DNA of 32,000 nt from Microcystis aeruginosa NIES-2549. Its GTDB lineage: Bacteria > Cyanobacteriota > Cyanobacteriia > Cyanobacteriales > Microcystaceae. Below, in pieces: positions 4,003 to 27,237 of this stretch. The stretch spans positions 1,350,001-1,382,000 of the forward strand of contig NZ_CP011304.1 in assembly GCF_000981785.2 (NCBI RefSeq). The letters run 5' to 3'. The notes beneath the pieces are model-generated. The model was not told where the DNA came from, did not search any database, and was given only the letters and a program-made list of their open reading frames with translations. Position 1 is the first letter of the stretch, and the number at the start of each line of letters is the position of its first letter. A program made the position numbers and the translations under genes.

Positions 4003-4004
4003 GG

Positions 4005-5143: not shown

Positions 5144-5207
5144 GGCTAATAATGTCTATAAACTAATCGATGGCGATGACATTCATTTCTTGACTCGGCA
5201 ACCCCAG

Positions 5208-5987: not shown

Positions 5988-6248
5988 AGCTTTTCATCAA
6001 AATAATATCTGTCTTTTCTTTTGAGATTACCCATTTCCGTGGCAAAAGTGGACCTCCTCTAAAAATCAAAAATTGTCGCGGTTGGTTAGCAGTCCCTAGG
6101 GATAACTAGGTATTGTTAAGTTAGCTAAAAAAGCAGCTAATCCTTACTGTTCCAGTGTTACCTTATCTTTGCAGGCAGCTGACTCCTTGGTTTTGTTGTA
6201 GTTGTCCTGAAACTTCCTCACCGTCCCAATCCGCCATCAAGAATAAGC

Positions 6249-6827: not shown

Positions 6828-6977
6828 TGTCTCGACATTTTTTGCTATAGCTTTCCCTAGTATATAGCCTTTTTTGTCTCGCTCCTAGATTTTAAAAGTC
6901 TTGGTAAGGTAAAATTTTTAGTTGACCTCTACTCCTGACCATTTTTTGACTTTTTACTGGTGACTTTTTACTGAATT

Positions 6978-7775: not shown

Positions 7776-8558
7776 CCCCCAAGCTGTCCCCAAGAGGCAG
7801 AGAATGCCGGCTAAACCCGCTAAAGGTTGGTTATAGATACCTTTAACCCAAACTAACCCAGAATCGCTGTAAGACATCAATTCGGCACTGTCTAGCAAGG
7901 CCAATCCCCATACCCAACCGCTATGAAGTCCCCAAGCTAATCCTAAACTACCATGATCGATCGCCCGCGCCCAGACCAGAACCATGCCCATCAGAAATAA
8001 ACCGGGTAGTTGCGGCAGCGTTTGCTGACGTTCCCAAAGCAGGTGCAGCAGGGCAAAAATTAGGCTAGAAATGGCTCCCGCCACCCCAAAACCGTATTCT
8101 TGGCTTAATTGGCTCAAAAAGATGCCCCGAAAGATTAATTCCTCGGTAATACCCACCCAGAGGGCCACTATCAACAGGGGTAAACTCAAGGAAAAAGCAC
8201 GAGTTAGATTTTTGGGCTGCCAATGTACCCAGGTCAAAATCCCCTCTAGAAAAAAAATTATCCCTAATCCCACCACTGCCAAGATTAATCCTTTAGTTAG
8301 GGAGATAAATAGGGAAAATGACCAAATTAATCCGTAATTATCGAGGCTGCTCCCCTCTATCTTGAATAATCCCCAGATAACTAAGGGAGCCAAGGCGTAA
8401 AGAGAGGCCACCAAGGGCAATTTTTGGTCAGGTTTTGTCCCTTGCAGCGGTTGCCATCCCAAACGACTCCCTAAACCAATGGCAATGGGCAGCCAGAGAA
8501 TTAACCAGGCTAACAGGAAAATAATAATTTTTATTAAGGCGGTAATCTCCATTGTCAA
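7758..8558 (-). CDS. CPBP family intramembrane glutamic endopeptidase (CAAX protease-like)
   Basis: Polytopic membrane protein with EELIFRG (EExxxR) and FALLH (FxxxH) motifs. It has an 18-nt tail-to-tail overlap with the Tab2-like gene. Confidence 0.8.
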   Translation of the reverse strand: MTMEITALIKIIIFLLAWLILWLPIAIGLGSRLGWQPLQGTKPDQKLPLVASLYALAPLVIWGLFKIEGSSLDNYGLIWSFSLFISLTKGLILAVVGLGIIFFLEGILTWVHWQPKNLTRAFSLSLPLLIVALWVGITEELIFRGIFLSQLSQEYGFGVAGAISSLIFALLHLLWERQQTLPQLPGLFLMGMVLVWARAIDHGSLGLAWGLHSGWVWGLALLDSAELMSYSDSGLVWVKGIYNQPLAGLAGILCLLGTAWGLNLLQ

Positions 8559-8826
8559 TTAGGTGTTATGGAAGTGGGGTGTGGGAAGAATAAATAAAAA
8601 TAATCTCCTGTCTCGGAGTCTCCTGTCTCCTGATGGCTAAAACAACAAACCCTCTAGGGACAGAATAACAGTGGAACTTTGCTCTGGTAAAGCCTAGCTC
8701 CAACAAAAATCTATCCTTAGGGGGTTGCGAAAAAGAAGAAAAAGTGCTTGAATAAAACCCCTCAAGTTGATGAAAGAGGCGGTCAGGGGTTAGAATTGGG
8801 GATAAGAATCTATATTGTCTTTTTGG

Positions 8827-8869
8827 TCGGTCTTGTCAAAACTAGCCCTTTTGACTGCCGATTTTTTTT
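8827..8869 (+). terminator. Intrinsic terminator-like hairpin followed by T8 (plus-strand polarity)
   Basis: TCGGTCTTGTCAAAA-ctagccc-TTTTGACTGCCGA is followed directly by TTTTTTTT (8862-8869). No annotated plus-strand gene lies upstream. Confidence 0.5.
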
Positions 8870-8895
8870 ATCCTTATCCCTACTCCGTAACCTAT

Positions 8896-9282
8896 TTAAG
8901 CTTCTACTGGTTCTTCTGATTCCGTTTGTTTGAGGTGGATGTGCTTGTAGCCAAGTTTGATTTCAAATTCATCCCCGGGCTGCAAGTTCATTTGTTCGGT
9001 ATAGGTGGAACCGATGACGATTTGACCATTTTTATGGACACTAACCCGGAAAGTGGGTTCGCGGCCGCGGCCATCTTTAGTGCCTTCGGGATCGAGAGGA
9101 ACGCCTTTTGCACCCAAAACAGCATCGTAAAAGTCGGTTAAATTAACCCGAACTTGGCCATCTTTACTTTGGGAGTAGTAACCACAACGTTTTGCCGTTT
9201 CGCGACGGGGTAAGTGGGCCAACTCTTTGACTTTTTGTAGTAGAGCTTTCCCGGTTAGGGGAGTAGGAGAGATATCACTCAT
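8896..9282 (-). CDS. Cyanobacterial AbrB-family transcriptional regulator (cyAbrB/CalA-like)
   Basis: 128 aa. The C-terminal SpoVT/AbrB-like segment is IVIGSTYTEQMNLQPGDEFEIKLG. The N-terminal region is typical of the cyAbrB clade. Confidence 0.8.
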   Translation of the reverse strand: MSDISPTPLTGKALLQKVKELAHLPRRETAKRCGYYSQSKDGQVRVNLTDFYDAVLGAKGVPLDPEGTKDGRGREPTFRVSVHKNGQIVIGSTYTEQMNLQPGDEFEIKLGYKHIHLKQTESEEPVEA

Positions 9283-9805
9283 GGTACTTTTAAATGTCCC
9301 TTGATTTTTGACTGACTGTCAATTAAGTTTACACTGACAAATTGATCATACCAAAAATCTTGCCAAAAATGTCTAGAGGGGAATAATAAATTTTTTAAAA
9401 CTGATGGTTCGATGATGACAATCGTGCTAAGAAGACCCCAGACTAGGTAGTAAGTGTAAACCTTGTGGGGGAGAGGAAATTTTTGGTTAAGACTCTCGCA
9501 ATTTTTGGTCGGGTGCGAAGAAAACAGGGGGGAGAAAGTAAGGACATAAAACGGATCAAGCTATACCCAGCAAGGAATTGAGAAACTATACTTGTGGTTG
9601 GAGTTGGCAAAAAACTAATGACCCAGAGCAGTAAATCCGGGGTGATTAAACTGTTTTCGATCGACTTGCCCATCTATGATTAGGTCTAGATACTCACCCC
9701 TTGGCTAAACCGACTGGGGAAAATCTTAAGGATTAATTACCATTACTAGCTCCCCTTTGGCCCGTTAACATCGATTATCCTGAGTATTAGGAGTCCCTCA
9801 CCCCC

Positions 9806-10798
9806 GTGCCGAGTATGGAAATTTCTTTTAAAATTCTGCGTCAACGACCCAACGACAGCCCCTACCTAGAAAATTTTACCCTAGAGGTGGAGGCGGGAAA
9901 TACAATTCTCGACTGCCTTAATCGCATCAAATGGGAACTTGATGGAACTTTGGCCTTTCGTAAAAATTGCCGCAATACAATTTGTGGCAGCTGTGCTATG
10001 AAAATTAACGGTCGTTCGGCCTTGGCTTGTCAACAAAATATCGCCAGTGAATTAAACCATTGTAGCCAAAAAGATGCCGGAGAAATTCCCGAAATCACGA
10101 TCGCACCCCTAGGCAATTTACCAATTATCCGGGATTTAATCGTCAATATGCAACCGTTTTGGGACGATTTAGAAAGGGTTGAACCTTATATTAGTAGTCA
10201 AGCGCGCACCATTCCCGAACGAGAATTTCTGCAAACTCCAGAAGAAAGAGCCAATCTCAATCAGATGGGTAACTGCATTATGTGCGGGGCCTGTTATTCG
10301 GAATGTAACGCCAAGCAAGTCAATCCCGATTTTGTCGGGCCCCACGCTTTGGCAAAAGCGCAGCGCACCCTAGCAGATTCTCGCGATGGTAATCAAGAAG
10401 GTCGTCTAGAACTTTATAACCAAGGCACCGCAGGGGTTTGGGGGTGTACCCGTTGCTATTTCTGTAATGCGGTTTGTCCCATGGAAGTGGACCCCATGGA
10501 TCAGATCGGTAAAATTAAACAGGAAATACTCGCTCGCAAGTCGGCCGATAGTAGTCGTCCCATTCGTCACCGAAAAGTTTTAGTGGAATTAGTCAAAGCA
10601 GGGGGATGGGTGGATGAACGCCAATTCGGCCTCTATGTGCTGGGCAATTATTGGCGCGATTTACAGGGTTTATTAAGTATTGCCCCCCTGGGATTGCGGA
10701 TGATTGCTAAGGGTAAATTTCCCACTTCCTTTGAAGCTTCCGAGGGAACCGAGGAAGTAAGAGGTTTAATTACTGCCATTCAAAATTCTCGCTCTTGA
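9806..10798 (+). CDS. sdhB: Succinate dehydrogenase/fumarate reductase iron-sulfur subunit
   Basis: Three Cys clusters are present: CRNTICGSC (2Fe-2S), CIMCGACYSEC (4Fe-4S) and CTRCYFCNAVCP. The start is GTG at 9806 or ATG at 9815. Confidence 0.8.
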   Translation: MPSMEISFKILRQRPNDSPYLENFTLEVEAGNTILDCLNRIKWELDGTLAFRKNCRNTICGSCAMKINGRSALACQQNIASELNHCSQKDAGEIPEITIAPLGNLPIIRDLIVNMQPFWDDLERVEPYISSQARTIPEREFLQTPEERANLNQMGNCIMCGACYSECNAKQVNPDFVGPHALAKAQRTLADSRDGNQEGRLELYNQGTAGVWGCTRCYFCNAVCPMEVDPMDQIGKIKQEILARKSADSSRPIRHRKVLVELVKAGGWVDERQFGLYVLGNYWRDLQGLLSIAPLGLRMIAKGKFPTSFEASEGTEEVRGLITAIQNSRS

Positions 10799-10860
10799 TA
10801 GTTAGAGTAATTCTGAGATAATTATGATCTATATTCTATTTGACTGGAGAACCCCTTATC

Positions 10861-11863
10861 ATGTTCGATCGAGATAGTATCCGTGGTTTTTCTGCCCTGA
10901 TTACCCTTGTGGGAGTCGCTTCTAGTTTGGGTTTTAGCCTCAACGCACCGGCTTTCTCCCAAGCTATCTCTAACAATTTACCATTACTCTTAGCCCAAAA
11001 AAGCGAAAAGGTGCGAGTAGCGGTTTTAGACTTCGATTATAGCGGTCTTAGTAATCCCCAATGGTTAACATTTCTCAATGGTGGAGCCAGTGGTGTCAGT
11101 GATATTCTCGTCAATAAATTGGTAGAAAGTGGTCGCTATACAGTCATTGAGCGCAGTCGCATTGATGCTGTCCTCAGAGAACAGAATTTGGGGGCTTCGG
11201 GACGGGTAGATGCCGCTACCGCCGCTCAAATCGGGCAAATTTTGGGGGTAGATGTGGTGATTATCGGTTCGATTACCCAATTCGATTTACAAAAAAAAAC
11301 AATCCGGTGGCTCGTTTATTATTTTTAGCACCGCTAAGACAGAAACCGATGCTTTTGTCAAGTTAAATGTCCGGGCAATTAATACCACCACGGCCGAAAT
11401 TATTACCACCGCTCAGGGAGATGGTACTGCCAATCAATCCGATGGTTCAACCGTGGTTTTAGGGGTTGGGGGTGGTTCCCAAACCTCCAACGAAGGGAAA
11501 TTACTCAGTATTGCCACCGATAAGGCAGTAGCGCAGGTGGTGGGTAATCTCAATGATAAAGCCGACCAAATCGCCGCTACACCGCGCTCGCTCCCGACTG
11601 TCACCGCTTTAGTGGCTGCCGTGGCCGGAAATCAGGTAATTCTCAATAAAGGCACGGGAGAGGGTTATCGTGTTGGTTTACGCATTTCCATTGAACGGAC
11701 GACTCAAACGGTCAAGGATCCGCAAACGGGTAAGGTTATCCGTCAGATTACTCAACCGATTGGCACTCTCGAAATTGTCGAAGCTGATGGTCAATCTAGC
11801 GTCGGTCGCATCATTACCGGTAATGGTTTTAAAATCGGAGATTTAGCTAAACCGATTCGTTAA
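10861..11863 (+). pseudogene. CsgG/HfaB-family (curli-secretion-like) lipoprotein gene, interrupted by a +1 frameshift in an A9 tract
   Basis: The N-terminal half contains VAVLDF...VIERSRIDAVLREQNLG...IGQILGVDVVIIGSITQFD, a CsgG-type pattern. It terminates 12 codons after A9 (11291-11299). Removing one A joins it in frame to the 11453-11863 ORF via ...QKKQSGGSFIIFSTAKTETDAFVKLNVRAINTTTAEI... Confidence 0.7.
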
Positions 11864-15583: not shown

Positions 15584-17267
15584 AGGGTTTGCTGAAAAAG
15601 TCATTGAAAAGTACAGGTCTCTTAATCAATGATTTCACTTAGCTACAAGCATAAGCTTTAGTTGTTGATTAATTTTTAAGTTATAACTTATCCTAATCAT
15701 TGACCGAGAAAAAGTGCTGTTTTTCCATTTCAGACATAAAAAAGCCCAAAAAACCTGCCTCAACAGGTTAGAAAGATTCATGACTAAAAAAGTAATAGCA
15801 ATCGCTGAAAAGGAAGTATGAGGAAGTTTAGCCATCACTTTACCTAAGCTAAATCTTCTTTTCCCCTGTCCAAATTTGCCCTCTATACAATTCCGAATCC
15901 TCTCATCATCGGTAGCTTGTTTCTTTTGTTCTTTACTAACATTTTTGGCTGGTCTTCCTAATGGGGGACCACTGATTCTGATTCCCCTTTCTTTACACCA
16001 AGCTCGGTTTTCTCTGGTTCGATAAATTTTGTCCACATGAACTGATTCTGGATAGTATCCTGTATAGTCATAATAAGCTTCTATTTGTGCTTTTAAATCT
16101 CCTGATTCATTAAAGTTATCCCAACTAATTCGGTCTAAAAATATGTAACCATCTATACAGCTTGCTGAGAATTTAGCCCCAAATTCTACGGGTTTTCCAG
16201 CTTTTCCTCTGACTATCGGACGGATGTGGGGTTGAGTTAAGCTGACAATTCTGTCTTCAATACTCTGTTTGTTATTTTGGTACATCCAGAGTTGTTGACG
16301 ATAAACTTCTGTGACTACTAACAACAGTTTATAGTCTCTTTTTTTCAAGCTTTGTAGAGAGGCTCCTTCTGCTAAAAGTTGTTCAATATGGTCGAGATTT
16401 CTTTTCAGATATTGCAGTTGTCTTTTCAGAGCTTTTCGTCTTTGTTTGACGGTAGGTTTTCTTTTTTTCGCTACTTCTAAATAACTTTTTCTGGCTAGAA
16501 GACGATAGGTTCTCGGTTTTTGAACAAGTTTTCCTTTTAAAGTTTCATAGAGAATATCAATAATTTTTTCGGTTTGTTTTCTTCCTTGATTTAACAGGTT
16601 TAAATCCGTAGGATAACTAATATCTGCGGGCGCACAACTGGCATCTAAAATTAATTTACCTCGATTTTCTGGTTGACTTTGGGTTTCGCTCTCTAACTTT
16701 TTTTCGGTGTTTTCTTCTTCTTTTATTTCTCTCGAATTTTTGACCATAAAGCGATTCACTTTATTAATTAGTTCCAGAGTGATTCTTTCTCGAAAGTGAA
16801 CCAACATTGACGCTTCAAACCGGGGTTCATTGCTGTAGGATGAAAACCCCAAGAAGTATTGTAAATAAGGATTTTCTTTGATTTGTTCTACCGTTTCTCT
16901 ATCGCTTGTTCCTAATTTTTCTTTAATAATTAATGCTCCGAGTGCTGTCCTGAATGTTTTGGCGGGTGTGCCCATTTCTTCTGAAAAAAGTGATGCGTAT
17001 TCCGCTTCAAATTCTGACCAGGGAATGAGGTTGGCCATAATTACCCAACGATTGTCTTGGGATAATTTCCCCTCAAAGGGCAGCTCGAAGTTTTCTGGTG
17101 GGGTTGAGGGTAACTCGCTTTTACGGTACATTAGCACTAATTAGAGAAGATGCAAGGGTGATGCAAGGGTTTTAAGAGATTCTAGCAGATTTAAGTGCAT
17201 TTGGGAAGCTCTCAATCAAGCTAAAAGCCCTTTCCTGTAAGGTTTTTACCATTATTCAGCAAACCCT
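15584..17267 (-). mobile_element. IS5-superfamily (IS5/IS1182-like) insertion sequence, 1684 bp
   Basis: Perfect terminal inverted repeats AGGGTTTGCTGAA / TTCAGCAAACCCT, with 4-bp direct repeats AATT at 15580-15583 and 17268-17271. The exact ends are ambiguous by +/-2 nt because the flank is palindromic (TTAATTAGGG...CCCTAATTAA). A single 500-aa transposase ORF lies inside. Confidence 0.85.
15635..17137 (-). CDS. DDE transposase (InsH-like N-terminal domain, IS5 superfamily)
   Basis: The N-terminal block PAKTFRTALGALIIKEKLGTSDRETVEQIKENPYLQYFLGF is typical of the DUF772/InsH N-terminal domain. The ORF is intact at 500 aa. The start is at 17137 or 17131 (MYRKSE). Confidence 0.8.
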   Translation of the reverse strand: MLMYRKSELPSTPPENFELPFEGKLSQDNRWVIMANLIPWSEFEAEYASLFSEEMGTPAKTFRTALGALIIKEKLGTSDRETVEQIKENPYLQYFLGFSSYSNEPRFEASMLVHFRERITLELINKVNRFMVKNSREIKEEENTEKKLESETQSQPENRGKLILDASCAPADISYPTDLNLLNQGRKQTEKIIDILYETLKGKLVQKPRTYRLLARKSYLEVAKKRKPTVKQRRKALKRQLQYLKRNLDHIEQLLAEGASLQSLKKRDYKLLLVVTEVYRQQLWMYQNNKQSIEDRIVSLTQPHIRPIVRGKAGKPVEFGAKFSASCIDGYIFLDRISWDNFNESGDLKAQIEAYYDYTGYYPESVHVDKIYRTRENRAWCKERGIRISGPPLGRPAKNVSKEQKKQATDDERIRNCIEGKFGQGKRRFSLGKVMAKLPHTSFSAIAITFLVMNLSNLLRQVFWAFLCLKWKNSTFSRSMIRISYNLKINQQLKLMLVAK

Positions 17268-17602
17268 AATTAAAGAAAAGTCCATCATTATCAGTACCCA
17301 AATAATTAATGAGGTTTCTTGTAATTTACTTAAAAAGCATAAGCTTGATGAAAAACAACTGTTTAAATTAATTGTTTCCTTTTATAGCAAATATCAAGTT
17401 ATCTCATTTAATCTTGATATTTTTGAATCTGCATCTAATCTGATAATTCAATACCATCTATCATTTTGGGATAGTTTAGTGATTGCTTGCGCTTTATTTT
17501 ATGATGCAAATATTTTGTATTCAGAAGATATGCAAGATGGTTTAATTATTAATAAAAAATTCACTATTATTAATCCCTTTAAGCAATAAAATTATTTTAC
17601 TG

Positions 17603-17927
17603 GTTAATGATGCTGTCTTTAACATTTCTAAAACCAGTCCTAACGGTACAGTCGTCGGCACAATTAACGCCACTGATGCCGATAACAACCCCTTAACCTA
17701 CAATATCACCGCGGGTAATCCTAACCTCGATGGCGATGGTAAGTAGTCATGCAAAATAAATTTCCTAGTGAAGATAGGCAAGAGGCAAGAGGCAAGAGGC
17801 AAAAGCTTTGTCGAAACGTGTAATTAATTTTGCTCAGGTACTTATCTCCGCCTTTACCATCAATAATAGCGGCCAAATTGCCATGGCTGACTCCGATGAC
17901 AAGGCTGTAGTCATCTCCCTACCCTAA
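17603..17927 (+). pseudogene. 3' remnant of a cadherin-repeat adhesin paralogue, carrying a MITE insertion
   Basis: VNDAVFNISKTSPNGTVVGTINATDADNNPLTYNITAGNPNLDGDG, then the MITE, then ISAFTINNSGQIAMADSDDKAVVISLP*. A 53-nt run (ATTTCTAAAACC...GCCACTGA) is identical to repeat 3 of the giant gene (about 22220-22272). Confidence 0.75.
17742..17842. mobile_element. 101-bp MITE with TA target duplication
   Basis: Termini AGTAgtcatGCAAAAT / ATTTTGCtcaggTACT are imperfect inverted repeats. TA is present at 17740-17741 and 17843-17844. Excision leaving one TA restores the host reading frame (GAT GGT ATC TCC). The element contains 3.5 x GGCAAGA. Confidence 0.65.
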
Positions 17928-18291
17928 CTGACTTGACAAAAGTTGATCAAAATATAACCTTAGCAACATAAATCGGCTTATCCCTAGGTAAATCCTTGCA
18001 GGAGTGCCATTATACCAGATATTTTCTCTCTGCTCGATTTATTTAATAAGCTCTGCTGATGAATGAAAAAAAAAAAAATAAACTAGGCTTATAACTATTC
18101 GCCTCTACAATCTAAGCATTATCCCTAACCAGTGCTAAATTTTCTGACATCCAAGCTTGATTAATGGTTTTGGTGTCTTTAAAGGCAGTTTTCTCCACTA
18201 TTCGCTTACTTATCAACTTTATCTAACTCGAACTAAGGTTCGGGTGGATTCCCTATTGACTCTGTACCATCTTTTTCACACGAGGTATATC

Positions 18292-21200
18292 ATGGCTATC
18301 ATCTACGTTAAATCCGGTTCTACTGGTAATGGTTCAGCGTGGAATAATGCTTATGGCGGTTTAGCAAGTGCCATAACTGCGGCACAAGCTGGCGATGAGA
18401 TTTGGGTGTCTGCGGGTACTTATAAACCCACGACGGGGACTGACAGAACCGCGAGTTTTACCCTAAAAAATAATGTCGGGATTTATGGCGGATTCGCCGG
18501 AACAGAAACCGCAGTAAATCAGCGTAATATTACCACTAATGTCACCATTTTAAGCGGTGAAATTGGTGTAGCGGGGATTGCGGATAATTCTTATCATGTT
18601 GTTACAGGAAGTAGTACGAATAATACAGCGATTCTCGACGGTTTTACGATTACGAAAGGGAATGCGAACGGTACGACGGGAAATCAGGGTACTGGTGGCG
18701 GAATGTACGTCAATAATGGCAGTCCTACCGTCAGAAATACAGTTTTTATTGATAATAATGCTACTTCTGGAGGTGGATTATACAACGAGCAGGGAAGCAA
18801 TCCTTTTCTGTCGGATGTACGGTTTGAATTTAATACTGCTACGGATGGAGCGGCGATTTATAATCGTTTGAGTAGTCCCTTCATTACTAATGCCACTTTT
18901 CGACTGAATACGGCGGTTAATAACGGTGGTGCGCTTTACAATGCTAGTAGTAGTAGTCCTACGGTGACTAATGCTGTTTTTACCCGAAATACAGCGACTA
19001 CAGCCGATGGGGGTGCAGTTTACAATATCTCAAGTCTTCCTAATTTCACTAATACTGATTTTAGTGGGAATGTGGCGGCGCGAGGAGGCGCGATTTCTAA
19101 TAATTCTAGTACCATTGGTTTAAGTAATAGTATTATCTACGGAAACCAAGATCGACGTGGTACAGGACCCGAAATTTTTAACAATGGCGGTACGATTAAT
19201 ACGAACAATAGCATCATTAAGGGCGGTGTCTTTAATGGTACGGATGTTGATCCCAAATTTGTTAACGCGAGTGGGGATGATTTACGCTTATTAGCAGGTT
19301 CTCCAGCTATAGATACAGGTAATTCTGCCTCATTACCAACGGATCGTCAAGATATTGATGCAGATGGCAATACTACAGAAGCTACGCCTTTAGATTTGGC
19401 GCGTAATCCCCGTATTGCTGGTTCTAGTGTGGATATTGGCGCGTTTGAGGGTGCAACTACGCCACCAACGGCGACTAAGCGCATTATTTATGTGAACGCG
19501 GCAGCGACAGGGGGTAATAGTGGTACTTCTTGGACGAATGCGTTTACTGATTTACAAGCAGCGTTAAATGCTGCACCCTTATTAGGGGATGAAATTTGGG
19601 TGGCTGCGGGTACTTATAAACCGACGACAACCACAGACAGGACAGCAACTTTTACCCTGAAAAACCAAGTTAAGGTTTATGGGGGTTTTGCTGGAACTGA
19701 AACGACTTTAGAGCAGCGAAATGTTACCAATAATGTCACTACTTTAAGTGGCGATATTGGAGGAACAACGAATGCTCAGGATAATGTTTATCACGTTGTT
19801 ACTGCGAGTTTTACCAATAATACAACGGTGTTAGATGGGTTTACCATTGCAGCAGGTAATGCCAATGGTACGGGAACGGATCAAAATAATGGCGGTGGTA
19901 TTTTTATCAATGATGGTACTCCGGTTTTGAGTAACCTAATTTTTGATAATAATAATGCTTCTGCTAATGGCGGAGGATTATTTAACACAGGTGCAAGTAA
20001 TCCTACCTTAACTAATGTTACTTTCCGTAATAATAATGCTGCCAATGGTGGAGGTATTTTTAACACGGGTAGCAGTAATCCTACCCTGACAAATGCGACA
20101 TTTACTAGCAATAATGCCAGTAGTCAAGGTGGTGCGATTTACAACAATAGTAGTAATCCCACTCTCAATACTGCTACTTTTACCAACAATACAGCCACGA
20201 ATAGTGGTGGTGCAATTTTCAATACCAGTAGCAATCCTACCCTCAATAATGTCACCTTCACTAATAACCGAACAACTGCATCTAGCGGTGGTGGTGGAGC
20301 GCTTTACAATGGTAGTAGCAGTAATCCCACCCTCAATCAAGTTAGCTTTCAACAAAACAGTTCGGCTAATGGGGGTGCAATCTTCAATACCAGTAGCAGT
20401 CCTATCCTAACTGATGTAACTTTTGGTAGTAATAGTGCTACTAATGGTGGTGCTATTTCTAACAACAGTAGCTATACAGCAGGGGGGACTAATTTTCATC
20501 TAACACGAGTTACTTTTACTAACAATAGTGCTAGTTTTCAAGGTGGGGCAATCTTTAACGCCAGTAGTAATCCCAGAATGACCAATATAACCTTTACTGG
20601 GAATACAACCACTGATCCAGCTAATGGTGGAACTGGAAGTGATCAAGGAGGTGCTATTTACAACACGAGTAGTAATCCCACTATCAATAGCACTACATTT
20701 AGTCAGAACAGCGCAAATAGCGATGGTGGTGCTATTTATAATTACTATAGTAGCCCAACTTTGACTGATATTACCTTCACCAACAACAGTAGCGTTAATG
20801 GTAGTGGTGGTGCAGTTTACAACACATATTACACCACTGCTACTCTAACCAACGCTAACTTTAATTTGAATAGTGCTAACAATGGTTTTGGTGGTGCTAT
20901 CTATGGTAGCAGTAGCAGTGTCATTAATCTAACTCAGAATAATTTCCAACAAAATAGTGCTAGTAGTGGTGGTGCGATTTACAACAGTAGCAGTAGTTCC
21001 AATCTGACCAATGTTAGCTTTAGTCAAAATGCTGCTAGTAGTAACGGTGGCGCAATTTATTCTACAAGTAGCAGTTCTACCCAAACTAATGTTACCTTCA
21101 GCCGTAATAATGCTATCAGTCAAGGGGGAGCAATTTGGATTAATGGAAGTGGTGCTAATACCTTAGTTAATACCAGTTTTTATGGCAATGCGTCCAGTAG

Positions 21201-23907
21201 CGGTAGTGCCATCTTTAATAGTGGAACTGCTCCTACTCTCCGTAATAGCATCATTTGGGGACATGGAGGAACAGCTATTGTCGGAAGTCCTACCATCACC
21301 AATAGTATCGTACAGGGAGGATATACCGGAACAGGAAACGTCACCGTTGATCCTTTAACAACTCCTGCAACTGCAATATTTGTTGATCCCAACTTCGATG
21401 ACTTACGCTTAAAAAGCGGTTCCCCTGCGATTGATGCAGGTAGCAATACTTTCCTCCCCGCAGACAGTCGAGACTTAGACAAAGACGGAAACACCACCGA
21501 ACCCCTCTCCCAAGACTTAGGGAATAATCCTCGCGTTAACGGTACTACAGTTGATATAGGTGCTTATGAATTTACACCCCCCGTCAATCAACCTCCTGTT
21601 ATCACTAACAAAACCTTTACCATTGCTAAAAGTAGTGCAGTGGGTGCTACCGTTGGTACTGTCCCCATTAGTGACCCCGAAAATAACCCTTTCACCGTCA
21701 CTATTACTAATGGTAATACTGACACAGATAACGACGGAACTCGTCCTTTTGCCATCAGTAACGCAGGAGTAATTACCGTTACTGACCCTGGTGATTTTGG
21801 CACAAATACAAGCTTTAATCTGACCATTGCTGCTAGTGATGGTAGCGCGACAGGAACAGGTAATGCAGTTATTAACTTAAATAGTCCGCCTACTGTTAAT
21901 AACGCCACCTTCTCTATTGTTAACAACAGTGCGGTGGGTGCAACTGTTGGTACTGTCACCGCCAGCGACCCGGAAAACAATCCCTTGACATTTAGCATTA
22001 CTAATGGTAATACGGACACAGATAATGACGGAACTCGTCCTTTTGCCATCAACAACTCAGGGGTAATTACCGTTACCGACCCCGGTGATTTTGGGACAAA
22101 TAACAGCTTTAATTTAACCGTCACCGCGAATGATGGTAACGCCACAGGAAACGGTGCAATTGTTGTTAACCTAACCAGTCCTGTCAACCGTCCCCCAGTG
22201 GTTAATGATGCTGTGTTTAGCATTTCTAAAACCAGTCCTAACGGTACAGTCGTCGGCACAATTAACGCCACTGACCCCGACAATAACCCCTTAACCTACA
22301 GTATCACCGCCGGAAATCCCGATACTGATGGGGACACTATCAAAGCCTTTGCTATTAGTAACACTGGGGTAATTACCGTTACCGATACTAATGATGTCAG
22401 CGCACAAACTAACCCCTTTAACCTGACAATTCAAGCCAGTGACGGCGCTTTAACCGATACGGGTATCGCTACCGTTAACCTAAATAATGTCAATCCTCTC
22501 AGCTTCCAACTGAAACTATATGAGGATAATAACGGGACAGTTGGCAGTGAAATTACTGGGAACAATCCCATTCTCGGTAATAGCTTCTTTGCGGAAATCC
22601 TCGTCGGTGATATTCGTACCAATGCAGCCGGTTTAATCATTAATTCCCTTGATTTTGGCTTCGCCGCTGATGTTGCTCAAAATATCAATAACTTCGCCGA
22701 TATTGGCAATGTCAACAGTCCCCTAGTTACTTCTAGTTTCCCCCTATTCCGAGGCGGGACTTTAGATAATACTAACGGACTAATTGATAACTTAAGTGGC
22801 GGTTCCGTCCCTCAAGCAAGTCAAGGTTCAGCGATTGGGGTCAATCAATTAAATCGCTTTAGTCTGCTACGATTTAATGTAGTCGGGACACGGGACAACT
22901 CCAACTTAAACCTCACCTTTGATCCTTCCCAAATTGGTTTTGCTGATGGCACATTTGCTGATCCTAATGGTACTTTAAGCTTAACCCGTAATATCATTAT
23001 CAATGATGCTCCCATCGTCGGTAGCATTAACAACGTCAACCTCGCCGAAAGAAACGCAGCAGGTACAGTAGTAGTAGCCGGTAACTTAGTCGAAGCAACC
23101 GATGATAATTACGGACAAACTCCCACCTTTAGCCTCAGTACCTCTCCTAAAGATGGCTCAGGAAATGACCTTTTTGCTATCAATGCAACCACTGGAGAAA
23201 TTACCCTCACTCAAGCAGGTTCTAATACCATTGACTATGAAAGTGGAGTAATATCCTATCAATTGGGAGTCAAAGCAACCGATGGTTATAAACTCTCTAC
23301 GGAAAAGACATTTAACGTTAATATTACTAACGTTAATGAAGGGACAATCGTAGTAGATAAAAACGCCATCACCTTCGGCACAAAACTCTCCCAATACCGC
23401 CAAGGTGCAACCGATAGCCTCTTTGTCCGTCCCAATTTTGCTGACCGAACCCAATACATTGATATTACTAATACCGCAGTGGGAACTAACGATGTACTCG
23501 CCATTGCTGGTATTACTGTCAACGCACAAAATGTCACCACAGATGCCAATTTTGCCAATGGAGACATACTGCTAAACCCCGGACAAACTCGACGTATTGC
23601 TTTAGCATATACACCCAAAGCAGCGCGAGAAAACTTTAATTTGGCTAACGGTTTAGTCATCAACAGTAATGCTCAAAACAATTCCGCTTTGAACATTCAA
23701 CTAACAGGGAAATCAACCTTTAACAGTGATATTTCCTACGATGGACGGGTGAATTTAACCGACTTAAACACCTTACAACGTCCGGGGTTATTCGGTAGTA
23801 GCAGTGGACAAACTAACTATGACCCTACTGCTGATATTACTGGAGATGGAAGAATTAATCTGTCCGAATTGGTTCCCTTAAATTCTGAATTTGGGTTAGT
23901 TATTTAG
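18292..23907 (+). CDS. Giant (1871-aa) surface-adhesin-like protein: 2 x right-handed beta-helix modules (Pmp-type GGAI/FxxN coils), 3+1 cadherin-like repeats, cohesin-like domain, beta-sandwich, C-terminal dockerin
   Basis: ATG at 18292 is preceded by GAGG 6 nt upstream. The TTG-extended ORF from 18157 adds a non-signal-like leader.
Domain layout read from the translation:
- Module A, 18292-19450.
- Module B, 19477-21573. Both modules open with IIYV..G..G.SW.NA...GDEIWV.AGTYKPT and close with DDLRL..GSPAID.G...D.DGNT.E...D.....R......VDIGA(F/Y)E.
- Cadherin-like repeats, 21592-22494.
- Cohesin-like domain, 22495-22990.
- Cadherin repeat ending NVNE, about 23000-23345.
- Dockerin, 23728-23904. 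Confidence 0.85.
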   Translation: MAIIYVKSGSTGNGSAWNNAYGGLASAITAAQAGDEIWVSAGTYKPTTGTDRTASFTLKNNVGIYGGFAGTETAVNQRNITTNVTILSGEIGVAGIADNSYHVVTGSSTNNTAILDGFTITKGNANGTTGNQGTGGGMYVNNGSPTVRNTVFIDNNATSGGGLYNEQGSNPFLSDVRFEFNTATDGAAIYNRLSSPFITNATFRLNTAVNNGGALYNASSSSPTVTNAVFTRNTATTADGGAVYNISSLPNFTNTDFSGNVAARGGAISNNSSTIGLSNSIIYGNQDRRGTGPEIFNNGGTINTNNSIIKGGVFNGTDVDPKFVNASGDDLRLLAGSPAIDTGNSASLPTDRQDIDADGNTTEATPLDLARNPRIAGSSVDIGAFEGATTPPTATKRIIYVNAAATGGNSGTSWTNAFTDLQAALNAAPLLGDEIWVAAGTYKPTTTTDRTATFTLKNQVKVYGGFAGTETTLEQRNVTNNVTTLSGDIGGTTNAQDNVYHVVTASFTNNTTVLDGFTIAAGNANGTGTDQNNGGGIFINDGTPVLSNLIFDNNNASANGGGLFNTGASNPTLTNVTFRNNNAANGGGIFNTGSSNPTLTNATFTSNNASSQGGAIYNNSSNPTLNTATFTNNTATNSGGAIFNTSSNPTLNNVTFTNNRTTASSGGGGALYNGSSSNPTLNQVSFQQNSSANGGAIFNTSSSPILTDVTFGSNSATNGGAISNNSSYTAGGTNFHLTRVTFTNNSASFQGGAIFNASSNPRMTNITFTGNTTTDPANGGTGSDQGGAIYNTSSNPTINSTTFSQNSANSDGGAIYNYYSSPTLTDITFTNNSSVNGSGGAVYNTYYTTATLTNANFNLNSANNGFGGAIYGSSSSVINLTQNNFQQNSASSGGAIYNSSSSSNLTNVSFSQNAASSNGGAIYSTSSSSTQTNVTFSRNNAISQGGAIWINGSGANTLVNTSFYGNASSSGSAIFNSGTAPTLRNSIIWGHGGTAIVGSPTITNSIVQGGYTGTGNVTVDPLTTPATAIFVDPNFDDLRLKSGSPAIDAGSNTFLPADSRDLDKDGNTTEPLSQDLGNNPRVNGTTVDIGAYEFTPPVNQPPVITNKTFTIAKSSAVGATVGTVPISDPENNPFTVTITNGNTDTDNDGTRPFAISNAGVITVTDPGDFGTNTSFNLTIAASDGSATGTGNAVINLNSPPTVNNATFSIVNNSAVGATVGTVTASDPENNPLTFSITNGNTDTDNDGTRPFAINNSGVITVTDPGDFGTNNSFNLTVTANDGNATGNGAIVVNLTSPVNRPPVVNDAVFSISKTSPNGTVVGTINATDPDNNPLTYSITAGNPDTDGDTIKAFAISNTGVITVTDTNDVSAQTNPFNLTIQASDGALTDTGIATVNLNNVNPLSFQLKLYEDNNGTVGSEITGNNPILGNSFFAEILVGDIRTNAAGLIINSLDFGFAADVAQNINNFADIGNVNSPLVTSSFPLFRGGTLDNTNGLIDNLSGGSVPQASQGSAIGVNQLNRFSLLRFNVVGTRDNSNLNLTFDPSQIGFADGTFADPNGTLSLTRNIIINDAPIVGSINNVNLAERNAAGTVVVAGNLVEATDDNYGQTPTFSLSTSPKDGSGNDLFAINATTGEITLTQAGSNTIDYESGVISYQLGVKATDGYKLSTEKTFNVNITNVNEGTIVVDKNAITFGTKLSQYRQGATDSLFVRPNFADRTQYIDITNTAVGTNDVLAIAGITVNAQNVTTDANFANGDILLNPGQTRRIALAYTPKAARENFNLANGLVINSNAQNNSALNIQLTGKSTFNSDISYDGRVNLTDLNTLQRPGLFGSSSGQTNYDPTADITGDGRINLSELVPLNSEFGLVI
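21592..22494 (+). repeat. Three tandem ~300-bp cadherin-like coding repeats (21592-21885, 21886-22191, 22192-22494)
   Basis: Repeats 1 and 2 share long, nearly identical nucleotide runs (for example GACGGAACTCGTCCTTTTGCCATCA). Repeat 3 is more diverged. Confidence 0.85.
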
Positions 23908-23921
23908 ATTAACTCTGTAGG

Positions 23922-23945
23922 TTGGGTTGACCCAAGGAAACCCAA
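23922..23945 (+). terminator. Hairpin TTGGGTT-N10-AACCCAA just after the giant-gene stop
   Basis: A 7-bp stem lies 15 nt after the stop codon. It has no U-tail. It resembles a dispersed cyanobacterial GTTGGGTT...AACCCAAC repeat as I remember it. Terminator function is uncertain. Confidence 0.3.
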
Positions 23946-24000
23946 GAATTCAGATTAATTATGATGGCTTTTGATTAGGTTTGATGGGTTAGCGCACTTC

Positions 24001-24219
24001 CTAAACCATCCTACAAAATAAAGGTTCAGGTAAGGGTTCATTATCTGCTTGATAAGCAATCATTAGGGATTCTATAGCTTCTTTTCCATTAGCGACAGCT
24101 TCCTCATAAGTATCTCCATGAGTACGCCAATATTGCCCTGGAAAATCAGGCAATGCAACCAAAAAACAATTATCTTCATCAGACCATTGAATCACCATGC
24201 GATATTTAATTTGTGCCAT
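24001..24219 (-). CDS. hicB: HicB-family antitoxin (short, UPF0150-like)
   Basis: MAQIKYRMVIQWSDEDNCFLVALPDFPG...THGDTYEEAVANGKEAIE is a HicB N-terminal fold pattern. The start lies 1 nt after the hicA stop. Confidence 0.7.
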   Translation of the reverse strand: MAQIKYRMVIQWSDEDNCFLVALPDFPGQYWRTHGDTYEEAVANGKEAIESLMIAYQADNEPLPEPLFCRMV

Positions 24220-24220
24220 T

Positions 24221-24352
24221 TTATTGATTCCTCTTAACTTCTTTTTCTTGATACAGTTTGGCATCGGTACTGTCTTTTCCAGAAACAGTAACTTTACCAG
24301 AGTACAAATGATGTACCCAGTTAGTGTGACTTCCCTTGCCGGGTTGTAGCAT
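24221..24352 (-). CDS. hicA: HicA-like toxin, unusually short (43 aa; possibly N-terminally truncated)
   Basis: My reverse-strand translation is MLQPGKGSHTNWVHHLYSGKVTVSGKDSTDAKLYQEKEVKRNQ*. GKGSH...VTVSG matches the HicA core, but the usual ~25-aa N-terminal helix is absent. Upstream in frame, VKKVSELKQ is preceded by TGA. Confidence 0.5.
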   Translation of the reverse strand: MLQPGKGSHTNWVHHLYSGKVTVSGKDSTDAKLYQEKEVKRNQ

Positions 24353-24395
24353 TTGTTTTAACTCACTAACTTTTTTAACTCAGGAGAACTACATT

Positions 24396-25016
24396 ATGTC
24401 TAGTCTGACTACTCAATTCAACCTCAAAACTGATAATAGTGGCCTAGTGGGAACTATTATTAATAGTCCTCTCCGTGTAGGCGATAGATTTTTTGTAGAA
24501 ATTTTAATGGAAAATAGTGATATTAATCCAGTCGGTATCACTAGCAGTGCCATTAATTTATCCTTCGATCCTCGCTCAATTCAAAACATCGATAATCCTT
24601 TCACTCCCTCAGATATCAATAGTCCTCTTGTTACCTCTAGGTTCCCCTTTGGACGGACGGGAATCTTAGACAATACCAATGGTTCAATTACTAACTTAGG
24701 CGGCGGTGCTTTCCCCTTAGCAGGCATTGGTTCACCTCTGGGAATTAATCAATTGGATACTTTTAGTTTATTGCACTTCCAAGTAATCGGCAATGGTAAT
24801 TCTAGTCTGGTACTTAATATTGATTTATCTCAAACTGGTTTTAGCGATGGCAGTGTTGCCAGTTATTCTGGCAATCAAAGTCAGTTTATAAAAATAGTTC
24901 AAGTGGGTTCATCGACAGCTATTCCCGAACCTTCTACAATTTTGGCAATAGTAATATTAGGGTTAGGTGTATTGCTGTCTAAAAAGCGCAATCAAGACAA
25001 TAGTAATGATGGTTAA
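24396..25016 (+). CDS. Cohesin-like domain protein with PEP-CTERM anchor
   Basis: ATG at 24396 with AGGAG 10 nt upstream. Residues ~5-160 are paralogous to giant-protein residues encoded at 22495-22990. The shared blocks are NSPLVTS.FP, LDNTNG.I.NL.GG, NQL..FSLL.F.V.G and SQ.GF.DG. The C-terminus is IPEPSTILAIVILGLGVLLSKKR. No N-terminal signal peptide is visible. Confidence 0.75.
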   Translation: MSSLTTQFNLKTDNSGLVGTIINSPLRVGDRFFVEILMENSDINPVGITSSAINLSFDPRSIQNIDNPFTPSDINSPLVTSRFPFGRTGILDNTNGSITNLGGGAFPLAGIGSPLGINQLDTFSLLHFQVIGNGNSSLVLNIDLSQTGFSDGSVASYSGNQSQFIKIVQVGSSTAIPEPSTILAIVILGLGVLLSKKRNQDNSNDG

Positions 25017-25279
25017 TTGATGTTTTTCGGGGACGTAAGCGATCGAGTTTACATCCCCGTGTGTAGTTTAGTCAACTTGGTTCATTATGCAAATCGATGT
25101 TACACTTAGCTGGAAACCCTATCCGGCAAGGGATTAATTCAATTTAGAGCGGGAAAAAAACACGAAAGACTTATCTGGAAGGTGTTTCAATCCCTTAGGC
25201 TCCTGATAAACCGCCGAGAAGCATACCAAACTCAGAAGAGCCATTTTCAGTAACAACCTTATCTGTAAGAAAGCCGCCA

Positions 25280-25318
25280 TGAAAAAGGACACAAGGTAAC
25301 TTGTGTCCTTGTCGAAGC
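25280..25318 (-). terminator. Hairpin repeat, copy 2; acts as the dnaK intrinsic terminator
   Basis: On the minus strand, AAGGACACAAG-ttac-CTTGTGTCCTT is followed by TTTTC, about 20 nt after the dnaK stop. The core is identical to 13082-13104. Confidence 0.7.
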
Positions 25319-25332
25319 TAGGAACTTAATTT

Positions 25333-27237
25333 TTATTTAGCGTCGGAGAATTCGGCATCGATGACATCATCGCCGCCACCAGCACCACCAGAGGGGCCAT
25401 TGTCATCATTGCCACCGGGGGGATTGCTAGGGGACCCTTGCTGATACATACTGCTGCCGATCGCGTAGAGGACTTGTTGTAATTCCGGTAGGATGGTTTT
25501 GATCTTACCATCATCGTCTTGAGCGATCGCTTCTTCCAGGTCTTTAATCAACCCTTGGGCTTTATTTTTCTCGGATGGGGGAACCTTATCGCCTAACTCT
25601 TCCAACTGCTTCTCAGCTTGATAAACCAGGGAATCAGCTTGATTTTTGCGTTCAATGCGTTCGCGACGTTCCTTATCGACCGAGGCGTTCGATTCTGCCT
25701 CATTAACCATGCGTTCCACTTCATTTTGGGGCAGGGTAGAAGCGCCGGTGATGCTGATCGATTGTTCTTTTCCTGTACCTTTATCCTTAGCGGTGACATT
25801 TAAAATACCGTTAGCATCGATGTCAAAAACCACTTCGATTTGAGGCACACCACGAGGCGCGGGAGGGATGCCATCGAGTCGGAAAGTTCCCAAACTCTTG
25901 TTATCTTTGGCCATTTCCCGTTCCCCTTGCAGGACGTGGATTTCTACGTTAGTTTGTCCATCTACTGCCGTGGAGAAAACTTCCGATTTTTTGGTGGGGA
26001 TAGTGGTGTTGCGGGTAATAATCCGCGTCATCACACCGCCGAGGGTTTCCACACCCAAAGACAGGGGCGAAACATCAAGCAGAAGAATATCTTTGACTTC
26101 ACCGGCGAGAACACCACCTTGAATGGCAGCACCGACGGCTACCACTTCATCGGGGTTAACGCTTTGGTTAGGATCTTTGCCGAGAACTTTTTTAACTAAT
26201 TCTTGAACGGCGGGAATCCGGGTTGAACCACCGACGAGAACCACTTCATCGAGGGCAGATTTATTGATTTTGGCATCACGGATGGCATTTTCGACGGGAA
26301 TCCGACAGCGATCAATTAAATCGGCGCAAATTTCCTCAAATTTAGCTCTGGTTAAAGTGGTATCTAGGTGTTTTGGTCCTTCGGCGGTAGCGGTGATGAA
26401 GGGCAGGTTAATTTCCGCTTGGGTAACGCTAGAAAGTTCAATTTTGGCTTTTTCTGCCGCTTCTGTGAGACGTTGCAGGGCCTGTTTATCTTGACGGAGA
26501 TCTATTCCTTCAACTTTTTTGAATTCTCCGGCTAGATAATCGACGATTTTTTTATCGAAGTCATCACCACCGAGATGAGTATCTCCAGAGGTAGCAAGAA
26601 CTTCAAAGACACCATCACCCACTTCTAGAACCGATACGTCAAAGGTTCCCCCACCCAAGTCAAAAACGAGAATGGTTTCGTTAGCTTTTTTGTCTAATCC
26701 GTAGGCAAGAGAGGCGGCGGTGGGTTCGTTGATAATGCGGAGAACTTCAACCCCAGCAATTCTCCCGGCATCTTTGGTGGCTTGACGTTGGGAGTCATTA
26801 AAATAAGCGGGTACGGTGATGACTGCTTGGGTAACGGTTTCGCCGAGGTATTTACTGGCATCTTCCACCAGTTTCCGCAGTACCTGGGCGGAAATTTCTT
26901 CGGGGGCGAATTGTTTGCCCTGGGCGGGACAGTCTAATTTAACGTTGCCGTTGCCGTCTTGGAGAGTTTTGTAGGATACTTCTGTGGCTTCGTTGGTAAC
27001 TTCGTTGAATTTCCGGCCGATGAAGCGTTTGACGGAATAAAAGGTATTTTGCGGGTTCATTACCGCTTGACGTTTGGCGATTTGTCCTACTAGGCGGTCG
27101 CCATTTTTGGCGTAGGCGACGACTGAGGGCGTGGTTCTAAATCCTTCGGCGTTGGCGATAACGGTGGGTTTACCCCCTTCCATAACCGCGACGCAGGAGT
27201 TAGTCGTCCCTAAGTCAATTCCAACTACTTTTCCCAT
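25333..27237 (-). CDS. dnaK: Molecular chaperone DnaK (Hsp70; DnaK2-like)
   Basis: [22 protein letters not shown] and [10 protein letters not shown] motifs are present. The acidic/Gly-rich C-terminus ends [12 protein letters not shown]. The start is at 27237, not the tracked 27261. Confidence 0.95.

Follow-up and report, generated by a model that had tools for sequence, protein, structure and literature searches.

Organization of the locus

The window analysed here is a stretch of 32,000 nucleotides from Microcystis aeruginosa NIES-2549 (contig NZ_CP011304.1, positions 1,350,001 to 1,382,000 of the forward strand; positions below are counted from its first letter). Two genes on its forward strand form the subject of this report: one encodes a giant adhesin-like protein of 1871 residues that ends in a dockerin, and the other, downstream of it, encodes a protein of 206 residues that joins a cohesin-like domain to a PEP-CTERM-type tail. 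It is proposed with moderate confidence that the pair constitutes a two-gene, non-cellulosomal cohesin–dockerin tethering cassette. The features of the locus are listed in Table 1.

Table 1. Positions of the two genes, of the domains that they encode and of the genes in the spacer between them (AF2, AlphaFold2; ORF, open reading frame; HMM, hidden Markov model; TM, transmembrane).
Feature	Position	Strand	Basis
Giant adhesin-like protein gene	18292..23907	+	ORF list, Pfam/NCBIfam domains, exact-sequence look-up
Two right-handed β-helix/PMP-repeat units (residues ∼1–395 and ∼400–1095)	18292..21576	+	Pfam/NCBIfam
Three tandem cadherin-like repeats (residues ∼1100–1400)	21592..22491	+	Pfam Cadherin, tblastn self-hits
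Internal cohesin-like domain of the giant (residues 1403–1560)	22498..22971	+	BLASTP to the small protein; fold from the small-protein model
Fourth cadherin-like repeat (residues ∼1584–1679)	23041..23328	+	Pfam Cadherin
Immunoglobulin (Ig)-like (MSP/PapD/ASH-type) β-sandwich just before the dockerin	23338..23706	+	AF2 model, Foldseek
Dockerin, two F-hand Ca-loop/helix segments (residues 1813–1871)	23728..23904	+	HMM, motif, AF2 model, Foldseek
hicB-like antitoxin gene; likely true product 72 residues (24001–24219)	24001..24264	−	HicB_lk_antitox 33.3 bits
Degraded hicA toxin remnant (pseudogene)	24209..24376	−	tblastn with the HicA of Crocosphaera locus L002
Single-cohesin-like PEP-CTERM protein gene (206 residues)	24396..25016	+	ORF, conserved ATG, homologues
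Cohesin-like β-sandwich domain of the small protein (residues 1–165)	24396..24890	+	AF2, Foldseek, profile search
PEP-CTERM-type tail (residues 176–198): IPEPS, TM helix, KKR	24921..24989	+	TIGR02595, AF2 helix

The giant is encoded within ORF 18157..23907 (+), with its ATG at 18292, and was identified by exact-sequence look-up as AKE63695.1/WP_046661486.1. From the N-terminus to the C-terminus it consists of two β-helix/PMP units that both terminate in a choice-of-anchor-Q segment, three cadherin repeats, the cohesin-like domain, a fourth cadherin repeat, the Ig-like domain and the dockerin. The β-helix region was matched by Chlam_PMP (93.8 bits, 11 stretches) and Beta_helix (36.7 bits) in Pfam and by POMP_repeat (69.6 bits) and choice_anch_Q (63.2 bits, two stretches, best at residues 1038–1094) in NCBIfam. 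Pfam Cadherin scored 92.1 bits over four stretches, the best at residues 1309–1396, and the repeats recurred as tblastn self-hits; on a C-terminal fragment the fourth repeat scored 27.6 bits, slightly below the cutoff of 28.8. The β-helix passenger is hypervariable within Microcystis (55–62% identity at loci L007, L010 and L011 by tblastn), while the C-terminal 470 residues are 88–100% identical across the Microcystis strains compared; such a combination, in which the head varies while the module for anchoring stays constant, would be expected of a protein displayed at the surface. RefSeq names the giant 'cadherin repeat domain-containing protein', and the GenBank records of strains NIES-2549 and NIES-2481 name it 'alkaline phosphatase', which is probably a misannotation because no phosphatase domain was found in domain scans of the giant.

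The gene for the small protein lies in ORF 24336..25016, with its ATG at 24396. Its homologues are annotated merely as 'PEP-CTERM sorting domain-containing protein' or 'hypothetical'.

The C-terminal dockerin and the Ig-like domain

Two 12-residue calcium-loop motifs, DISYDGRVNLTD at residue 1813 (nucleotide 23728) and DITGDGRINLSE at residue 1848 (nucleotide 23833), lie at the end of the giant with a spacing of 35 residues from D1 to D1. They follow the dockerin pattern of two tandem F-hands of ∼22 residues, each with a loop D-x-[DNST]-x-[DN]-G-x-[IV]-x-x-x-[DE] followed by a helix. An earlier note, made by a model from the sequence alone, had described a duplicated type I dockerin signature here; the two copies were found as described, and the distance between them, given there as 20 residues, was corrected to the 19 residues that separate the two 16-mers. 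Pfam Dockerin_1 (PF00404, gathering threshold 22.9 bits) matched the last 68 residues with 36.0 bits (E = 7.9e-9) and the last 302 residues with 27.6 bits; on the whole, compositionally biased giant the score was 19.5 bits (E = 1.1e-3), under the cutoff, so that the HMM check that the earlier note had called for was passed when the C-terminus was scanned as a module.

An AF2 model of the last 189 residues (m28d40d5957a0) had a mean predicted local distance difference test (pLDDT) value of 75, with 76–89 in the dockerin part, and showed a helix after each loop. Foldseek superposed the modelled dockerin on the solved dockerin 2y3n_B with a template-modelling score (TM score) of 0.81 and a root-mean-square deviation (rmsd) of 1.7 Å over 62 columns at 27% identity; the overall E value was only 1.5e-2 because the module is small. 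By motif, HMM and fold the C-terminus of the giant is a real dockerin of type I-like character. The two F-hands are nearly symmetrical at positions 10/11 (L-T and L-S), which may be compatible with a dual binding mode.

The dockerin is preceded by an Ig-like β-sandwich that the earlier note did not mention and that matched MSP, PapD and HYDIN ASH domains in Foldseek searches. Matches to chains with an X module–dockerin (X-Doc) dyad were weak (E ∼ 1e-2, rmsd ∼ 13 Å), and assignment as a true X module was rejected, the fold being nearer to MSP, PapD and ASH; the domain is X-like by position only. Together the Ig-like domain and the dockerin (the last ∼190 residues) form a conserved unit that is found on otherwise unrelated cargo in Microcystis, Dolichospermum, Snowella and others, and PF00404 is precomputed on homologues P0083, P0089, P0103 and P0108.

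The shared cohesin-like domain

Residues 1403–1560 of the giant were aligned by BLASTP with residues 4–159 of the small protein at 47% identity and 63% positives (E = 2e-33). The earlier note had called a domain of ∼165 residues at 22495–22990 paralogous to the 206-residue protein, and the paralogy was confirmed within the slightly narrower limits given in Table 1. The AF2 model of the small protein (pLDDT 77) is all-β with 10–11 strands and a helix at residues 181–203, and this predicted fold agrees with the nine-stranded β jelly-roll of ∼140–170 residues by which a cohesin is recognized. A Foldseek search of this model against the PDB returned 36 matches at E ≤ 1e-3, nearly all of them cohesins (types I, II and III) with a probability of 1.00. 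The best match was 5lxv_A (E = 1.1e-5), the highest target-normalized TM score was 0.69, to 2jh2 (a Clostridium perfringens cohesin-like module), the type II cohesins 5g5d, 5k39, 2b59 and 1qzn were among the best structural matches, and the ScaE anchoring cohesin 2zf9 was also found.

A profile of the domain was searched against 1.84 billion representative proteins and gave 345 clusters at E ≤ 1e-3, 215 of them at E ≤ 1e-10. When 60 full-length relatives were scanned, Pfam Cohesin was found in four, Dockerin_1 in 11 and Planc_extracel in 11; the best Cohesin E value was 8.1e-9, for a match that could lie in a second domain. Among 37 relatives reduced to the domain, Cohesin matched two (best E = 2e-3) and was the sole family to match more than one member, and in protein P0237 the Pfam Cohesin match covers the region of the domain profile. 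A broad family profile run against all PDB sequences gave exactly two matches, both of them cohesins and both sub-threshold (E ∼ 0.4). A dockerin loop pair lies on the same chain in 32 of 150 family representatives, and the Planctomycete LExLExRxLL N-terminal motif is present in 30 of the 150.

The wider family also takes in RTX-type proteins, and those cyanobacterial relatives that begin, at Met1, with the cohesin-like domain have RTX repeats or a 'bluetail' C-terminus. The family extends beyond colony-forming cyanobacteria, a point absent from the earlier note: in P0125, P0128, P0155, P0163, P0178, P0194, P0239 and others, the LExLExRxLLA 'Planctomycete extracellular' motif, a cohesin-like domain and a dockerin pair stand on one chain. 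The Planctomycete-type proteins are a second, larger lineage of the cohesin-like/dockerin module pair.

The PEP-CTERM-type tail

The small protein ends in IPEPS-TILAIVILGLGVLLS-KKR, that is, in the PEP motif, TM helix and basic cluster of a PEP-CTERM signal. TIGR02595 (PEP_CTERM) scored 23.7 bits against a cutoff of 16, in agreement with the tail read by the earlier note, and the cyanobacterial model TIGR04155 (cyano_PEP) matched two of 25 family members with E values down to 9e-9. By the positive-inside rule, the position of the KKR cluster behind the helix would place the C-terminus in the cytoplasm and the N-terminal domain outside.

Conservation of the gene order

The surroundings of the small gene were taken from isolate genomes and metagenome-assembled genomes (MAGs), and parts of the giant were placed by tblastn. 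A dockerin-ending gene immediately precedes the cohesin-like gene at ∼16 independent loci. Wherever enough upstream DNA was available, the preceding same-strand gene ends in the Ig–dockerin dyad (cassette A; Microcystis loci L006–L011, Gloeothece verrucosa PCC 7822 locus L001 and Crocosphaera loci L002/L015, L012–L014 and L016). The upstream region in Aphanothece sacrum (L005) retains no more than a fragment of the C-terminal region of the giant, without a dockerin match. The flanking genes are unrelated between genera.

A Microcystis paralogue of the small protein (P0064, 209 residues, 52% identical) is likewise preceded by a dockerin-ending gene (cassette B; L017 and L018). Its dockerin is of a different subtype, DITYNGKVDRGDL...DINGD[GS]xINLGDF, and its cargo consists of FG-GAP/VCBS, Calx-beta or LVIVD repeats together with cadherins. 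No internal cohesin-like domain was found in the sequenced part of the cassette B cargo (P0098, P0102 and P0104; L018), and the small protein is the sole cohesin-like partner encoded nearby. Each dockerin subtype is always paired with the same small-protein subtype, A with A and B with B. Decayed cassettes, in which a dockerin fragment alone remains upstream, were found at L003/L004, L019 and L020. In another cyanobacterium (L022), a 1723-residue protein ending in the Ig–dockerin dyad is followed by a 497-residue protein that has the cohesin-like domain at Met1, then cadherin and RTX modules and no PEP-CTERM tail; in this arrangement the adjacency of dockerin and cohesin-like domain has survived a change of anchor. 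Conserved linkage, which the earlier note had named as a check, was thus found across at least four genera and in two paralogous cassettes, and it is the strongest functional evidence obtained here.

Several further observations were made at these loci. The L022 region (2638–10146) contains a third gene, for a 203-residue protein with a signal peptide and a PEP-CTERM-like tail (VPWE...KKYK) that is not cohesin-like. In Euhalothece sp. KZN 001 (L023, MDVL01000999.1, 77–17414), at least five consecutive same-strand genes encode surface proteins that end in a dockerin, three of them with a cohesin-like domain; the protein types are PMP/cadherin, DUF7402/cadherin, VWD/Big_9 and DUF6923, and the cluster is scaffoldin-like. 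Locus L006 (JADBXP010000038.1, 7.1 kb) is labelled as a MAG of a Chitinophagaceae bacterium and carries a complete Microcystis cassette with 95–100% protein identity; the contig almost certainly stems from Microcystis and was placed in a Bacteroidota MAG by mis-binning. The C-terminal region of the giant and hicB are 82–94% identical to those of Crocosphaera XPORK-15E and Gloeothece, against 55–62% for the small protein, and this mosaic conservation across genera suggests segment recombination or horizontal transfer, or else very unequal constraint.

Proposed tethering mechanism

In the proposed mechanism the giant would be an adhesin-like surface protein with a variable β-helix/PMP head, a calcium-dependent cadherin stalk and a conserved Ig–dockerin 'plug'. 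The small protein would act as a one-cohesin anchoring scaffoldin, its β-sandwich receiving the dockerin; its PEP-CTERM helix would keep it in the cytoplasmic membrane, from where an exosortase would presumably transfer it to the envelope or to the exopolysaccharide slime. Cohesins bind dockerins through their 8-3-6-5 sheet, and the conserved adjacency of the dockerin and cohesin-like genes lends such binding indirect support. The internal cohesin-like domain of the giant could recruit other dockerin proteins or further copies of the giant, which would make the giant an adaptor scaffoldin within a cell-surface or mucilage-bound protein network. The earlier note had cast the giant as dockerin-bearing cargo; the dockerin stands, but with its internal cohesin the giant resembles an adaptor scaffoldin, or a self-associating protein, more than simple cargo. 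We infer a physical contact between cohesin and dockerin and the specificity of this pairing, exosortase processing of the small protein and a role of the cassette in adhesion or colony formation. Export would probably be independent of Sec, possibly by type I secretion in the case of the giant.

The closest analogy is with anchoring scaffoldins. In Ruminococcus flavefaciens, one gene cluster encodes the adhesion protein CttA, the scaffoldin ScaB and ScaE; ScaE is fixed by an LPXTG/sortase anchor, and its only cohesin takes up the X-Doc dyads that CttA and ScaB bear (PMC5301203). The two systems share a small single-cohesin protein with a C-terminal sorting signal, clustered genes and ligands with an Ig-like X module and a C-terminal dockerin, and CttA, too, is an adhesion protein and not an enzyme. 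They differ in that the cassette has a PEP-CTERM tail (the Gram-negative exosortase class) instead of LPXTG/sortase, no signal peptide, no carbohydrate-active enzymes and an oxygenic phototroph as host; moreover, its cohesin-like domain is too divergent for Pfam Cohesin and its Ig-like domain matches X modules weakly. The X-Doc dyad of CipA from Clostridium thermocellum, which docks into SdbA, OlpB and Orf2p (type II), offers a second likeness, namely a scaffoldin with its own cohesins that is plugged by a C-terminal X-Doc into a cell-bound cohesin. There, however, anchoring is by SLH repeats on a Gram-positive wall and the cargo is a multi-enzyme cellulosome, whereas in the Microcystis system the cohesin-like modules number one or two and the cargo is of the adhesin type. 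By this analogy the cassette would most likely work like an anchoring-scaffoldin/X-Doc pair. No glycoside hydrolase was found among the dockerin-bearing proteins (the types found were β-helix/PMP, cadherin, FG-GAP, Calx-beta, LVIVD and VWD), and since no carbohydrate-active cargo was seen the cassette is not a cellulosome.

Cohesin and dockerin modules have been reported across bacteria and archaea in sequence surveys. The toxin/glycosidase complexes of Clostridium perfringens reportedly contain non-cellulosomal cohesin–dockerin pairs (cohesin-like module 2jh2; GH84C, 2w1n), and these resemble the present pair in placing cohesin-like and dockerin modules outside cellulose degradation. The C. 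perfringens proteins differ in being secreted enzymes of a Gram-positive bacterium that have signal peptides and lack a PEP-CTERM anchor. LapA and RTX-type giant adhesins are, like the giant, very large and repetitive, lack a Sec signal and have calcium-binding repeats (cadherin-like in the giant), and relatives of the cohesin-like family bear RTX repeats. The giant itself differs from them in having no RTX motifs by Pfam, NCBIfam or regular-expression scan and hence falls outside the RTX adhesins; ABC, MFP and TolC genes are not adjacent to it, and its retention would use a C-terminal dockerin, whereas theirs uses an N-terminal plug. With PEP-CTERM/exosortase sorting, the cassette shares the PEP motif, TM helix and basic cluster as well as a cyanobacterial host rich in exopolysaccharide; canonical substrates carry a Sec signal peptide and the small-protein family does not. 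An example of such sorting is cyanoexosortase B of Nostoc punctiforme; in Nostoc, the adhesion of polysaccharide to the cell surface is mediated by PEP-CTERM proteins (PMC12188702). In the literature searched, no paper combined cohesin, dockerin and PEP-CTERM, and nothing relevant linked Microcystis with dockerin, or with cadherin and colony formation.

Evidence against tethering and alternative explanations

The three sequence observations of the earlier note are confirmed and its interpretation is partly supported; of the four refuting conditions that it had named, those on the fold, the dockerin HMM and the linkage were checked, and none of these three went against it. The cassette is well supported at the level of its parts and their genomic linkage; the interaction and the export route are putative, and the following observations weigh against the tethering proposal.

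The first set concerns the identity of the shared domain. Neither copy in the window matched Pfam Cohesin (PF00963), even at E ≤ 10 or, in domain-only scans, at E ≤ 1, and NCBIfam gave no cohesin assignment for the small protein or the internal domain. A phmmer search of the small protein against PDB chains returned nothing relevant (a porin at E = 0.49), and a profile of the close family had no matches among PDB sequences. Alignment of the broad family profile with the CipA cohesin 1AOH by hhalign had a probability of 7% (P = 0.005) over 36 columns in the 'G-x-x-x-x-(Y/W)DP-x-VLE' strand region and was rejected as stand-alone evidence of homology, being too weak. The target-normalized TM scores to cohesins, taken from a predicted model, are moderate (0.45–0.69). 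The proposal of the earlier note that the shared domain is a cohesin is therefore retained for the fold and not for Pfam Cohesin: the structural predictions support its membership at the fold level as a highly divergent cohesin-like module, and at the level of sequence it is not a member of PF00963.

The second set concerns the anchor and the export of both proteins. Pfam PF07589 scored 13.9 bits on the small protein, below its cutoff of 20.7, and TIGR02595 matched at E ≤ 0.01 in just seven of 25 family members. No N-terminal Sec signal peptide was found on the small protein in any genus examined, a point that the earlier note had missed. The first residues of the protein, MSSLTTQFNLKTDN, already form strand 1 of the domain, and residue 4 is paired in the alignment with the initial strand of the giant's internal domain. 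All 79 homologues have the same start position, the ATG has an AGGAG motif 7–9 nucleotides upstream and in-frame stops occur 1–22 codons 5′ of it in the window and at 14 other loci. A mis-called start was rejected; the stretch that could be added in frame before the ATG is short, varies between loci and does not resemble a signal peptide. Exosortase substrates are defined by an N-terminal Sec signal (PMC12188702); lacking one, the small protein falls outside the canonical PEP-CTERM substrates. Of the tethering by a PEP-CTERM anchor that the earlier note proposed, the match of the tail thus holds and the Sec signal peptide of exosortase substrates is missing. An external N-terminal domain would require 170 residues of the small protein to cross the membrane, and it is an export puzzle in itself that signal peptides are consistently missing from what looks like a PEP-CTERM protein. 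The giant has no signal peptide either; it and its orthologues begin at the β-helix cap (MAIIYVKSG...). Relatives with the cohesin-like domain at Met1 and RTX or 'bluetail' termini point to Sec-independent, type-I-like export as a habit of the family; the giant could plausibly leave the cell in this way, whereas for a small protein that carries a membrane helix at its C-terminus the route is not plausible. A search of the 32-kb window revealed no genes for exosortase, type I secretion (ABC/MFP/TolC) or exopolysaccharide.

The third set concerns the choice of partner. Between genera the dockerin, at 78–98% identity, is the best-conserved element, against 55–62% for the small protein. In Crocosphaera XPORK-15E and Gloeothece, the internal cohesin (82–92%) is conserved to the same extent as the dockerin (82–90%). 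Since the dockerin tracks the internal cohesin while the small protein drifts, the internal cohesin could be a partner of the dockerin, even the main one. This covariation is an argument for a homotypic polymer, in which the dockerin would bind the internal cohesin of another giant, giving head-to-tail fibres, or that of its own chain as an autoinhibited clasp, and the small protein would be merely a chain terminator, a competitor or unrelated in role. The giant does bear both modules, as do the 32 family representatives counted above. Three Crocosphaera MAGs break the pattern, however, with internal cohesins of 50–58% identity that have diverged as much as the small protein; the cassette B cargo, without an internal cohesin in its sequenced part, is still followed by a small cohesin-like gene; and in CipA-type scaffoldins a protein's own cohesins and dockerin do not bind each other. 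We regard the homotypic polymer as unlikely.

A second alternative dispenses with the cohesin–dockerin pair. The β-sandwich would bind polysaccharide or another ligand in the manner of a carbohydrate-binding module (CBM), the dockerin-like end of a Sec-independent (type I) substrate would serve in its calcium-triggered folding or secretion, and the adjacency of the genes would stem from a common function in the slime matrix without direct contact. The lacking match to Pfam Cohesin, the absence of a signal peptide from both proteins and the RTX repeats on Met1-domain relatives, which are typical of type I secretion substrates, are consistent with such a view, as is the placement of the dockerin at the very end of the chain, which is also where the signals for type I secretion are located. 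Yet it is cohesins and not CBMs that head the Foldseek ranking, the dockerin has both canonical F-hands and the dockerin fold, the adjacency of dockerin and cohesin-like domain is kept while cargo, anchor type and flanking genes change, and the two modules co-occur in two phyla. This explanation, too, seems improbable.

That the small protein is instead a tail-anchored receptor, whose cytoplasmic cohesin-like domain would capture the C-terminal dockerin of the unsecreted giant and bring it to, or keep it at, a secretion site, agrees with the absence of signal peptides from both proteins in all genera and with the C-terminal helix as the sole hydrophobic segment of the small protein, but is very improbable given the external N-terminal domain that the KKR cluster predicts, the extracellular calcium-dependent nature of dockerins, cadherins and cohesins and the fit of the tail to the PEP-CTERM sorting model.

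Implications

The tethering proposal bears on the cohesion of the buoyant, grazing-resistant colonies of Microcystis, a long-open question in bloom ecology in which the mucilage proteins are poorly known. It offers the concrete hypothesis of a calcium-dependent plug and socket by which strain-variable giant adhesins would be fixed to the cell or to the slime. Calcium promotes the aggregation of Microcystis. If the proposal is true, colony cohesion would be tied to calcium, the cohesin–dockerin principle would extend to Gram-negative phototrophs and the small protein would be the first scaffoldin-type client of the exosortase/PEP-CTERM system. In addition, the cohesin-like family, with its 345 representative clusters, is missed by current HMM libraries, and public annotation recognizes neither module, the genes being named after a 'PEP-CTERM sorting domain', a 'cadherin domain' or even an 'alkaline phosphatase'.

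A broader and distinctly more speculative reading, which as a whole we consider possible rather than probable, is that a previously unrecognized divergent cohesin family and canonical dockerins make up a Sec-independent surface 'adhesome' of slime-forming unicellular cyanobacteria, with a parallel in Planctomycetes. Hypervariable giants would plug via the Ig–dockerin dyad into one-cohesin anchors; these anchors, devoid of signal peptides, would be inserted N-out by the PEP-CTERM helix and handed to the exopolysaccharide by an exosortase; and internal cohesins would chain the adhesins into a network that holds Microcystis colonies together.

Spacer and neighbouring genes

The spacer between the two genes contains, on the opposite strand, an intact hicB (94% identical to Crocosphaera HicB) and the remnant of hicA, which retains 70% identity to the HicA of L002 and has two 7-residue deletions and an internal stop. 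A hicAB pair lies at the same spot, between the dockerin and cohesin-like genes, in Microcystis, Crocosphaera and Aphanothece (L002 9102–9525, L005 9413–9836, L013 ∼3238–3468) and is absent in Gloeothece.

No operon boundary could be called because the counts in a promoter/terminator scan of 17100–25400 equalled the shuffled expectation. The neighbours of the cassette in the window are housekeeping genes, an insertion sequence (IS) element and DnaK. The IS transposase (15635–17137, −; DDE_Tnp_1_2 and DUF772) is 1.1 kb away from the giant gene, on its upstream side, and the 1.15-kb stretch between the IS element and the giant gene has no ORF of at least 80 residues. Farther upstream, a CsgG-like ORF (a curli-type outer-membrane secretion component; 10840–11328, +) lies 7 kb from the giant gene, covers only profile positions 4–107 of 210 and is followed by an unassigned ORF of 136 residues (11453–11863, +); this may be a split or truncated gene.

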